A DNA stretch of 64,000 bases from Escherichia coli. GTDB lineage: Bacteria; Pseudomonadota; Gammaproteobacteria; Enterobacterales; Enterobacteriaceae. The DNA is taken from NCBI RefSeq assembly GCF_013122565.1, contig NZ_CP053258.1. The stretch is one strand, 5' to 3'. A program made the position numbers. The first letter of the stretch is position 1. Each line of letters opens with the position of its first letter. Of the stretch, positions 20,801-23,800 are shown piece by piece.

Positions 20801-23800
20801 GTTCATGGCCTGTCAGCGCCAGCGAGGATCTCGGTGCAGGTACGCATGTTGAAGTAATTGCGATAGAAGGGATAACGCTGATCATCCGTGCGGCCATCGC
20901 CTGATGCGACGCTGACGCGTCTTATCATGCCTACAAAATATGCCCGAATCGTAGGCCGGATAAGGCGTTTACGCAGCATCCGGCGGTTATGCACCGACGC
21001 CTTATGCGACGCGGGCGCGTCTTATCACGCCTACAAATCTGTGCCCGAATCGTAGGCCGGATAAGGCGCTTGCGCCGCATCCGGCATATAGCCGAGTATA
21101 GGCAAAATTACTCTTCCCGGCCTTTACTCATACTTTTTTGGTCTTCATCCGGATAGTGTTTTTTTAGATATTCCAGGACGTTTTTATTGACCTTGTGTTG
21201 CGTATACACCCACCCTTTCCAGTAATCAGGCTGGTCCAGGTAAACTTCTGGCGGAATGGTGAAATCAGAAAGCGTTAACCATTCGGCTAACAGATCGGGG
21301 TTTCGTTTCTGGATCAACTGCAACAGCATAATCAGCGACATGGCAGAGGCAGGAGCCGTACTATCGCCGCTTAAATACTTCCACACTGTCGACCGGTTCG
21401 AACGAAAAAGGATCGGTAGCAATGCCCGGTCCAGATTCATTTCATTAAAAATCTTCTCAAATTCATTCATTTAAATTTTCCTGCCTGGCGTAAACCTCTT
21501 AAAAATTGAGATTTATCAAAGAAACGCATTTTAGCACACATCAGGAACCGCTTCACGTTTAGTCCAGAAACAGAATTTATTTCGCTTATCAAAACAAGTC
21601 TTTACTCTTTTTTACATTGAAAGAGCACGAAATGATTTCCTTTTTTATTTATAAAAGAAACACTTTTTGTTTCTTATTGGTGGTGTTTACGCTTACACCA
21701 AACAAAAATGCGCTTTACATCACACAAATGGCGGCGTAGATTTCGATCAAATTGCAACGTAGTTTATTTCTTAAAACAATATTATTAGTTTCTTATAGAA
21801 ACATTAATGCGACTTATTTTGATCGAGAGAAAATGAATGAAAACTGTAAACGTAGCTTTACTGGCACTCATAATTTCAGCAACATCCAGCCCTGTTGTTT
21901 TAGCTGGTGATACCATTGAAGCGGCGGCAACAGAGCTTTCAGCCATTAACTCGGGCATGTCGCAATCGGAGATTGAGCAGAAGATTACCCGCTTTTTAGA
22001 ACGCACCGACAACAGCCCCGCTGCATATACCTATTTGACTGAACATCACTACATCCCTTCTGAAACACCTGATACCACTCAGACTCCCCCTGTCCAGACA
22101 GATCCTGACGCAGGACAAAAAACCGTTGCCGCTACAGGTGATGTACAGACAACCGCCCGTTATCAGAGCATGATCAACGCCCGACAGTCTGCGGTAACTG
22201 ATGCCCAGCAAACGCAAATTACAGAGCAACAGGCGCAGATCGTAGCCACACAAAAAACGCTCGCCGCGACTGGAGATACGCAAAATACTGCGCATTATCA
22301 GGAGATGATTAATGCCAGACTGGCGGCTCAAAATGAGGCTAATCAGCGCACTACCACGGAACAAGGGCAGAAAATGAATGCACTGACAACCGATGTGGCA
22401 GCACAACAGCAAAAAGAAAGGGCTCAATACGATAAACAAATGCAAAGTCTGGCGCAGAAGTCTGTCCAGGCACATGAGCAAATTGAAAGTCTGAGACAAG
22501 ATTCCGCACAAACGCAGCAACAGTTAACCAACACGCAAAAACGGGTCGCAGATAACAGCCAACAAATTAACACGCTCAATAACCATTTCGATTCTCTGAA
22601 AAACGAAGTTGAGGACAATCGTAAAGAAGCCAATGCGGGAACTGCATCTGCCATCGCTATCGCCTCACAACCACAGGTGAAAACCGGTGACTTGATGATG
22701 GTGTCAGCGGGAGCGGGAACGTTCAACGGTGAATCTGCGGTGTCTGTAGGAACATCTTTTAATGCCGGAACGCATACGGTACTTAAAGCAGGTATTTCTG
22801 CGGATACACAATCTGATTTCGGTGCGGGTGTCGGCGTGGGATATTCGTTCTAATTTTAACAGCAATTTCTTATTCGCAATTTTCCGCACATTATTTAAGG
22901 TTAACAATGATGAATAGCTCCATTAAATCGTTTTCCCTGCTGGCGGTTATATTACTGGCTGGCTGTAGTTCACCCACTTCCCGCATCGCAGATTGCCAGG
23001 CGCAGGGCGTCAGTCATGACACCTGTTATCTCGCAGAACAGCAGCGTCAGACGGCTATTTTAAGTGCATCCGAGGCGCAGGCATTTAAAAATGCAGAAGC
23101 CGCACAACATGCCCAGGCGGCAAAGAAAGCCATTTATAAAGGATTTGGCGTCACCTTCAGAATGAGCAGTAAGGACTTTGCTTATCTCAATGATTCATTA
23201 TGTGCCATAGATGAGGATAATGCCGATGCCACGGTTTATCAGTCGGGTCTGTATAACGTCATTGTTTATCATCACACAGGAAAAATCGCCTTAATGAAAG
23301 AAGGCCAGTTTGTGGGCTATTTAAAATGAAGGAGCAAAGGAAAATACCCCTGACGCACATTATGATTATCGGTGCGTTTATTTTTGCCTTCTTGCAAGTG
23401 GTGTTATTAGCCTCCCTGGTTCACGCTGTGAATGTTAACAACGAAATCCAGGAAGGCTTATTTCAGTCGGGGCGCATTATGGTAGAAAGTTTGCAGCATA
23501 TTCTTTCGGTGCAAACGGGGATTAATGGGTAAGGATACCGTTACCATTTCCAGAGCAATAGTCACCAGCGTAATTTTCTGGCACAGTTCAGGGTTCTGAA
23601 TATTCGGCTAAGGAGTGGCCATGCTTTTTCCCTTTCGAAAACCTGAAGTACGTCTGCTGAAAAATACCGCTGCGGGCGTCATTTTTTCGGTGAAGTCCGG
23701 TAAAGGATTTCTGCGTCAATGTGTGCTTTACGATCCGCACCCTTATGGGCTTATCCGTTCACTCTGCTGGCAGGATGTCCCGGTAATACGTTTCTGGTCC

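Follow-up and report, generated by a model that had tools for sequence, protein, structure and literature searches.

Trimeric autotransporter adhesins (TAAs, type Vc), among them YadA, Hia, AtaA, UspA and Eib, are surface proteins in which tandem repeats and a mosaic structure are typical, according to two published accounts (PMC2373917, PMC2597055). We analysed a stretch of 64,000 nucleotides (nt) from Escherichia coli contig NZ_CP053258.1 (assembly GCF_013122565.1), hereafter the window, in which an open reading frame (ORF) of 338 amino acids (aa) at 21837..22853 carries the RefSeq product name "YadA family autotransporter adhesin". The protein resembles TAAs in its long helical stalk and four-strand YadA anchor, and probably in a signal peptide read from its sequence; its stalk is repetitive, mosaic and variable in length among alleles, with repeats and mosaicism as the same accounts describe for TAAs. 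It differs from them in being very short, in having no recognised head, neck or catalogued passenger domain (in Pfam the anchor only), in a repeat unit limited to a small family, and in that deletion of its genomic island left adherence to HeLa and Caco-2 cells unaffected (PMC5826968). The same gene has been published under the name GmrA, described as an activator of transcription that has a predicted DNA-binding domain, in a study that mentions neither an internal repeat nor a length polymorphism (PMC5826968).

The repeated segment of the stalk is best explained as an ancient, now frozen tandem duplication of a module of ~45 residues in a short YadA-family (type Vc, TAA-like) outer-membrane protein, other alleles of which still change stalk length. 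We give this reading a probability of about 0.8. Stalks built from repeats and resized through them are a textbook feature of fibrous surface proteins, and the finding is ordinary for this protein class; it provides an example of how a frozen ancient duplication can be told from active ones within one gene family.

A repeat clear in the protein but not in the DNA

A preliminary description of the window had reported a clear tandem duplication at both the protein and the DNA level, and had proposed that stalk length evolves as repeats are gained and lost. It placed the segment correctly, in coordinates as well as in frame. The two units, here called A and B (Table 1), align without gaps and are identical at 24 of 45 residues in register, with 17 identities in the first 22 residues and 7 in the remaining 23, and both contain the core motif KT.AATGD.Q.TA.YQ.MINAR. 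In a scan of offsets from 15 to 119, offset 45 was the sole outlier, with 17 identities in a 22-residue window (next best 8), and 2000 shuffles of the stalk that preserved its composition never attained 17/22 or 24/45 (shuffle maxima 11 and 17). The duplication at the protein level is therefore genuine, with a similarity that greatly exceeds chance.

The stalk is compositionally biased and the second halves of the units match weakly, hence a resemblance could also be sought in the composition and periodicity of a Gln/Ala-rich coiled coil, with no duplication at all. Such an origin is hardly credible given a core that is specific and non-periodic, shuffles that stop at 11 identities where 17 were observed, and a unit profile that found only 10 cluster representatives in 1.84 billion proteins. 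The repeat unit appears from this search to be specific to the family and not a generic coiled coil.

At the DNA level the claim of a clear duplication failed. Tandem Repeats Finder returned no row at its most permissive setting (minimum score 30), and a seed-based repeat search (seed 6) found no family of period 135. In register the units share 76 of 135 nt (56%; 45/66 in the core), which lies above codon-shuffled controls, an excess that amino-acid conservation alone is enough to give. Where both units have the same residue they share the codon in 8 of 24 pairs, with 9.9 expected from the gene’s own codon usage, the Nei-Gojobori estimate of synonymous divergence (dS) between A and B is saturated and undefined, and the longest exact DNA match between them is 7 nt. 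Synonymous sites are therefore randomised, and together with the short longest run this means that the duplication is old. With runs of this length, the two copies in the 338-aa allele would offer no substrate for homologous recombination or slippage.

Copy number among orthologues

Relatives were collected from 5.8 billion proteins, of which 315 were returned; the 120 listed ranged from 213 to 586 aa, with complete proteins from 325 aa. Units were counted on the collected relatives with a hidden Markov model profile built from 13 aligned units (alignment A2). Complete genomes added a further allele, of 594 aa. Across alleles the proteins run from 338 to 594 aa, a strong polymorphism in stalk length.

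The preliminary description had suggested aligning orthologues to look for one, two or three repeat copies, and all three states occur. Two units, the state of most Escherichia alleles, are found at a spacing of 45 residues in the 338-aa class and the 464-aa allele, at 38 in the 459/465-aa class, and at 52 in the 345/456/457/469/471/477/530/579/586-aa alleles. Three units are found at spacings of 52+52 in the 480-aa allele (E. ruysiae), of 38+38 in the 497-aa allele (Escherichia sp. and E. coli drafts) and of 121+52 in the 577-aa allele, in the last case as part of a larger duplication of 121 residues. The 363-aa proteins of Enterobacteriaceae bacterium FGI57 and its relatives have one unit, as do 475-aa metagenomic proteins. 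In the 436-aa allele of O145:H28 (RM12761, locus L013 1029-2339), an in-frame deletion of 20 residues, GDVKTAARYQSMINALQTAT, removes the head of unit A and leaves unit B alone intact. Unit spacing is 38, 45 or 52, that is 7n+3, in all well-populated alleles.

The 480- and 497-aa loci with three copies and the Escherichia loci with two copies all sit between ybbJ and cueR, beside the same set of neighbours. Alleles of 338, 436, 459, 471, 480, 497, 577 and 594 aa form a natural series of stalk lengths at one chromosomal site, with spacings that differ by whole heptads, and this series could be used to test the effect of stalk length on function.

Within the class of the window, copy number did not vary. 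The 338-aa class forms a cluster of 1187 members (~1029 complete genomes), and all 16 sequences examined, two cluster representatives and 14 listed members of that cluster, have two units 45 residues apart; there was no copy-number variant among these 16. Locus spans in 60 evenly spaced genomes out of 1416 positive ones corresponded to 338 aa in ~42, 471 aa in six, 594 aa in eight and 436 aa in two, with two partial. The 497-aa type was absent from 5426 complete E. coli genomes, in which the best identity was 80–90% and the matches had two-copy spans.

These data bear on whether the duplication could be recent, visible in the DNA and now polymorphic among strains with this allele through recombination or slippage. 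Copy number does differ among orthologues, and other alleles contain younger A duplicates with 87–93% nucleotide identity. Set against this are the 56% identity, saturated synonymous sites and 7-nt longest run of the present pair, the empty results of both repeat searches, the two units in every 338-aa cluster member examined, and the occurrence of one or three copies in diverged allele classes or other genera, with the 497-aa type in 0/5426 complete genomes. Synonymous similarity, long exact runs and polymorphism within the allele class, which mark an active or recent tandem repeat, were all lacking, and a recent origin is largely refuted and very improbable. Evolution by repeat gain and loss accordingly describes the family, with its one to three copies, but not this pair, which is ancient, diverged and fixed at two. 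The finding that the preliminary description had named as contrary to its own proposal, an ancient duplication of invariant number, is what the A/B pair displays, while elsewhere copy number changes through extra A units.

Age and history of the units

Two unit types were recognised in the alignment. Type A (KTVAATGDVQT.ARYQSMI.ARQ...) has a Gln-rich tail of variable length, and type B (KTVSALGD...AHYQEMVNARL.AQN.AN.RT..EQ.QKID) always comes last. When the first 26 residues are compared, A units from different alleles have 20–26 identities in common and B units from the main allele classes of E. coli 21–26, with lower values for the more diverged B units of the window allele (15–19), the 456-aa allele (16–19) and E. 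ruysiae (16–17). A and B units compared with each other share 14–21 identities, or 14–18 outside E. ruysiae. Each type resembles the same type in other alleles more than the unit beside it, which places the A/B duplication before the split of the sampled Escherichia alleles. The pair is kept in every full-length Escherichia allele examined.

The third units have a different history: they are extra A copies, younger than the A/B pair. Those of the 497-aa allele are identical at 99 of 114 nt (dS 0.30) and those of the 480-aa allele at 106 of 114 nt in the first 38 codons (146/156 for the full unit; dS 0.24), with longest exact runs of 41–43 nt in these two alleles. Between allele classes, orthologous stalk units of the window and of other E. 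coli/Escherichia loci (L003, L005, L007) have dS above 1, and the flanking cassette genes are ~92% identical in nucleotides. So deep a divergence in this one gene would be consistent with old allelic lineages or with diversifying selection on a surface protein.

Under the reading of a frozen duplication, the two unit types arose before the Escherichia alleles of today split from one another, and both would then have been kept by protein-level selection while their DNA diverged to saturation. The pair in the 338-aa allele would for that reason be unable to recombine, which would fix its number at two. Other alleles have continued to change length by later re-duplication of unit A, by in-frame changes of 7 or 14 residues in the A spacer that give unit lengths of 38, 45 and 52, or by gain or loss of a separate module of 123 residues. 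Unequal recombination or slippage is the probable mechanism of copy change, and its consequence would be an altered reach of the N-terminal domain, by ~6.7 nm for each unit of 45 residues, with a rise of 1.5 Å for every residue of helix.

Some observations weigh against this account. The last of the three units in E. ruysiae combines an A-like head with a B-like tail, as unequal exchange in that lineage would produce; units have hence exchanged sequence to some extent, and "ancient and frozen" does not hold for every lineage. The single units of the outgroup proteins have diverged too far for assignment to type A or type B, and one copy may be ancestral or may be the product of loss. The single unit of outgroup protein P0126 (the FGI57-type locus, L009) aligns to unit B of the window. 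The 7n+3 rule has exceptions in singleton metagenomic or short-read assemblies (spacings of 39 and 41) and in the 20-residue deletion of O145:H28. The surface-displayed trimer that the account presumes is a prediction. Finally, the sole published functional study of the gene (PMC5826968) describes a DNA-binding activator and found no adherence defect in the island deletion mutant.

A YadA-type architecture in a gene published as GmrA

The domain architecture is that of a short TAA-like protein. Residues 1–24 have the n/h/c layout of a signal peptide when read by eye, with K2, a hydrophobic core and V-L-A before the cut site, and are disordered in the AlphaFold2 (AF2) model, with a predicted local distance difference test score (pLDDT) below 50. 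The N-terminal domain that follows has modelled helices at 27–34, 43–56 and 61–69 and is conserved across alleles; pLDDT is again below 50 over residues 76–104. The AF2 model of the whole protein (mean pLDDT 72) continues with a helix at 104–145, a break at G146-D147, a continuous helix at 148–276, with pLDDT of 80–96 near the anchor, and four strands at 287–336. In a phase scan, the stalk heptads are regular from ~aa 196 to 272 in a/d phase, with Asn at d positions 240 and 261.

The anchor itself is firmly identified. Pfam PF03895 (YadA_anchor) matches residues 279–338 over its full profile, 1–60, with E=7.3e-12 and 45.6 bits against a cut-off of 22.7, and the protein ends in a terminal aromatic residue (...GYSF). 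In a phmmer search against solved structures, the anchors of AtaA, Hia and YadA were matched by the anchor alone, and the stalk had no match. PHROG family phrog_17426, annotated "adhesin", matches residues 103–338 (E=5e-22). Beyond the anchor, the Pfam and NCBIfam scans gave no head, neck or other passenger family, only coiled-coil look-alikes (SMC, ATG16), and the N-terminal domain and the repeat region searched separately against Pfam at E up to 10 gave nothing meaningful. The C-terminus is thus a four-strand YadA-type anchor, into which the predicted coiled-coil stalk runs, and "trimeric-autotransporter-like stalk", the wording of the preliminary description, appears fair on these sequence matches. 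A recognised adhesive head or passenger with adhesive function was not found, and we file the protein as YadA-family and TAA-like, not as a demonstrated adhesin.

Published primers fix the identity of the gene. The gmrA cloning primer ATGAAAACTGTAAACGTAGCTTTA corresponds to the start of the ORF (window 21837-21860), the FLAG primer ends in the reverse complement of its last codons, and the deletion primers match window 21798-21839 with one mismatch and 22854-22891 with none. These matches identify the window gene as z0639/gmrA, and the O157:H7 protein is 96% identical to that of the window. GmrA (Z0639) of O157:H7 EDL933 was reported to bind DNA and to activate transcription of fliA (Yang et al. 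2018, PMC5826968), with binding to the fliA promoter in an electrophoretic mobility shift assay (EMSA) and in chromatin immunoprecipitation with quantitative PCR (ChIP-qPCR), a deletion mutant that was less motile, and complementation; adherence of an island deletion mutant to HeLa or Caco-2 cells was unchanged (PMC5826968). A review of O-island genes still calls GmrA a predicted transcription factor.

Taken at face value, these experiments would make the protein a cytoplasmic activator in which the repeats belong to a coiled coil for dimerisation or DNA binding instead of a stalk at the cell surface. We consider this very unlikely. The signal-peptide-like N-terminus and the membrane anchor, well above the Pfam cut-off and matched to solved anchors, argue against a cytoplasmic location, and the "adhesin" match in PHROGs also speaks against this reading. 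No DNA-binding family was found in the 338-aa protein at E<=0.1 in Pfam or E<=0.01 in NCBIfam, where its other matches were the coiled-coil look-alikes. The gene also diverges in the pattern expected of exposed surface proteins, with 37% identity to an outgroup where its neighbours retain 68–74%, and dS above 1 between E. coli allele classes. A published transcription factor thus coincides with what the scans present as a secreted, membrane-anchored, fast-evolving YadA-family sequence, and the assignment deserves re-examination.

A conserved head in the repeat unit

The units consist of a 22-residue head, with consensus K-T-V-A-A-T-G-D-x-Q-x-x-A-x-Y-Q-x-M-x-N-A-R, and a Gln/Ala-rich helical spacer. 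Eleven positions are invariant across 13 diverged units (K1, T2, A5, G7, D8, A13, Y15, Q16, M18, A21 and A25), whereas the tails are variable, with length differences of exactly 7 or 14 residues. Within the head, G-D is the sole helix break that AF2 predicts in the stalk, and it lies at the same place in all modelled copies. A crude, hand-made scan of heptad phase slips at the same two places in both units, which is a hint only.

A net shift of +3 per unit, as follows from the 7n+3 spacing, is the definition of a stammer. Stammers and beta-layers interrupt the heptad pattern of trimeric coiled coils (Hartmann et al. 2016, PMC4786415), the latter with the consensus [aliphatic]-A-T-K-[polar]-[DE] and arising from insertions of 2 or 6 residues into heptads (PMC4786415). 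The head is similar in having a short motif of small residues that ends in Asp (V-A-A-T-G-D) within a coiled-coil stalk, a non-heptad increment and a predicted helix break. It differs from beta-layers in agreeing with the consensus at 3 of 6 positions, in its increment of 3 instead of 2 or 6, and in having no matching solved structure.

The head may be kept as a structural or functional element of the stalk, beta-layer-like, stammer-like or ligand-binding, with selection on copy number and on heptad-quantised spacing; this would add to the frozen duplication and not replace it. The invariant positions beside variable tails, the 7n+3 spacing in well-populated alleles, the shared helix break and phase slips, and the likeness to the beta-layer consensus (PMC4786415) favour such a role. 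The match to that consensus is partial, however, the +3 increment is the signature of a stammer and not of beta-layer insertions, the stalk has no sequence match among solved structures, and O145:H28 strains have deleted the head of unit A and retained the gene. A model of three copies of residues 104–200 joined by 50-residue Gly/Ser linkers, run with a matched 7-row alignment, was uninformative, its mean pLDDT of 48.6 being too low to judge a beta-layer at KTLAATGD. We regard a kept structural element as possible, though on balance doubtful. The more specific proposal, that the head is an undescribed non-heptad element of trimeric coiled-coil stalks in the O-island-29 family, which adds a fixed +3 shift plus whole heptads per unit so that copy number (1–3) sets both stalk length and the rotational offset of the N-terminal domain, with selection on discrete states, is speculative and improbable as it stands.

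The 123-residue module and other length changes

Most of the length variation has another source. A separate module of 123 residues (RDNGQDTAIQDAQHAANWAS...NRSDIADQQ) is present in 0, 1 and 2 copies in the 338-, 471- and 594-aa alleles, respectively. Its two copies in the 594-aa allele (the L002 gene; residues 103–225 and 226–348) are identical at 340 of 369 nt and share an exact run of 160 nt, hence this duplication appears recent and prone to recombination. Most present-day length variation comes from the 123-residue module, from heptad-sized insertions and deletions, and from extra A units in rare alleles; in E. coli the greater part is due to the module and not to the A/B unit.

In RefSeq the long alleles are entered as a "YadA-like family protein" of 349 aa, with a start within the passenger and no signal peptide. 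Loci annotated in this way include L002 (3220-5022), L003 (3220-4653), L004 (same annotated coordinates), L014 and L015. At L002, L003, L014 and L015 the open frame extends upstream as far as a signal peptide, for a total of 471 or 594 aa, and the 349-aa annotation is probably a start-site error caused by the internal repeat.

A further YadA-anchor protein, of 397 aa with two units spaced 52 residues apart, was found in E. coli CP082355 (L012 1413-5390), in a recombinase-bearing, phage-like insertion that adjoins ybbJ. Together with the phrog_17426 match, this insertion suggests exchange between chromosomal and prophage-borne adhesins.

The islet and its neighbouring genes

The gene belongs to a small accessory islet, bounded by ybbJ and cueR, which 1414 of the 5426 complete E. 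coli genomes carry. The islet is O-island 29 of O157:H7 EDL933 and the gene is z0639. Features of the gene and its surroundings are collected in Table 1.

Table 1. Features of the 338-aa gene and of the surrounding islet, in window coordinates.
Feature	Position	Strand	Basis
YadA-family (trimeric-autotransporter-like) gene, 338 aa	21837..22853	+	ORF call, Pfam YadA_anchor, RefSeq name, published gmrA primers
Predicted Sec signal peptide, aa 1-24, MKTVNVALLALIISATSSPVVLA, cut before GD	21837..21908	+	sequence reading
Small N-terminal helical domain (aa ~25-70), then Pro/Thr-rich linker (aa ~71-94)	21909..22118	+	AF2, allele conservation
Repeat unit A, aa 95-139; conserved core aa 95-116 = KTVAATGDVQTTARYQSMINAR, then Gln-rich helical spacer	22119..22253	+	
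Repeat unit B, aa 140-184; core aa 140-161 = KTLAATGDTQNTAHYQEMINAR; type-B tail L.AQNEAN.RT..EQ.QK	22254..22388	+	
Rest of helical stalk, aa 185-278	22389..22670	+	AF2, heptad phase scan
YadA-type membrane anchor, aa 279-338, and stop codon	22671..22853	+	Pfam, PDB matches, AF2
120-aa conserved cassette gene, z0640 homologue	21108..21470	-	
140-aa lipoprotein, lipobox LLAGC, z0638 homologue	22907..23329	+	ORF call; z0638 primers
68-aa small hydrophobic protein, cassette member	23326..23532	+	ORF call
409-aa ORF between cassette and cueR	23615-24844		

The one-unit outgroup loci from other Enterobacteriaceae (L009 3297-5836 and L010 993-4032) have the same four-gene cassette one gene further along, between fetA and qmcA. 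It consists of a reverse-strand gene of 111–120 aa, the adhesin, the lipoprotein and a membrane protein of 67–69 aa, the gene for which is present in all loci examined. Between the FGI57-type locus L009 and the window (21108-23532), the 120-aa gene product is 74% identical, the lipoprotein 68% and the adhesin 37%; in this comparison the adhesin diverges much faster than its cassette neighbours.

Candidate functions for the neighbours were not upheld. The 140-aa lipoprotein was considered as a SadB-like helper of autotransporter biogenesis (after PMC3953254) and dropped at the sequence level, its best PDB match having E=0.097, with no Pfam or PHROG family. The 120-aa gene had no homologue among solved structures, and a weak Pfam match to the MqsA antitoxin (E=0.081) is not evidence for that function. 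The 409-aa ORF had no match in Pfam, NCBIfam or PHROGs; some strains (ES5, O145:H28 and UCPROB-002) have it, and O157:H7 does not.

Between ybbJ and the 120-aa gene, window 20898-21085 contains two tandem units of ~100 nt, the copies of which are 90–93% identical. They are composed of palindromic elements that resemble repetitive extragenic palindromic (REP) sequences, GCCGGATAAGGCG...CATCCGGC, and probably mark the boundary of the islet.

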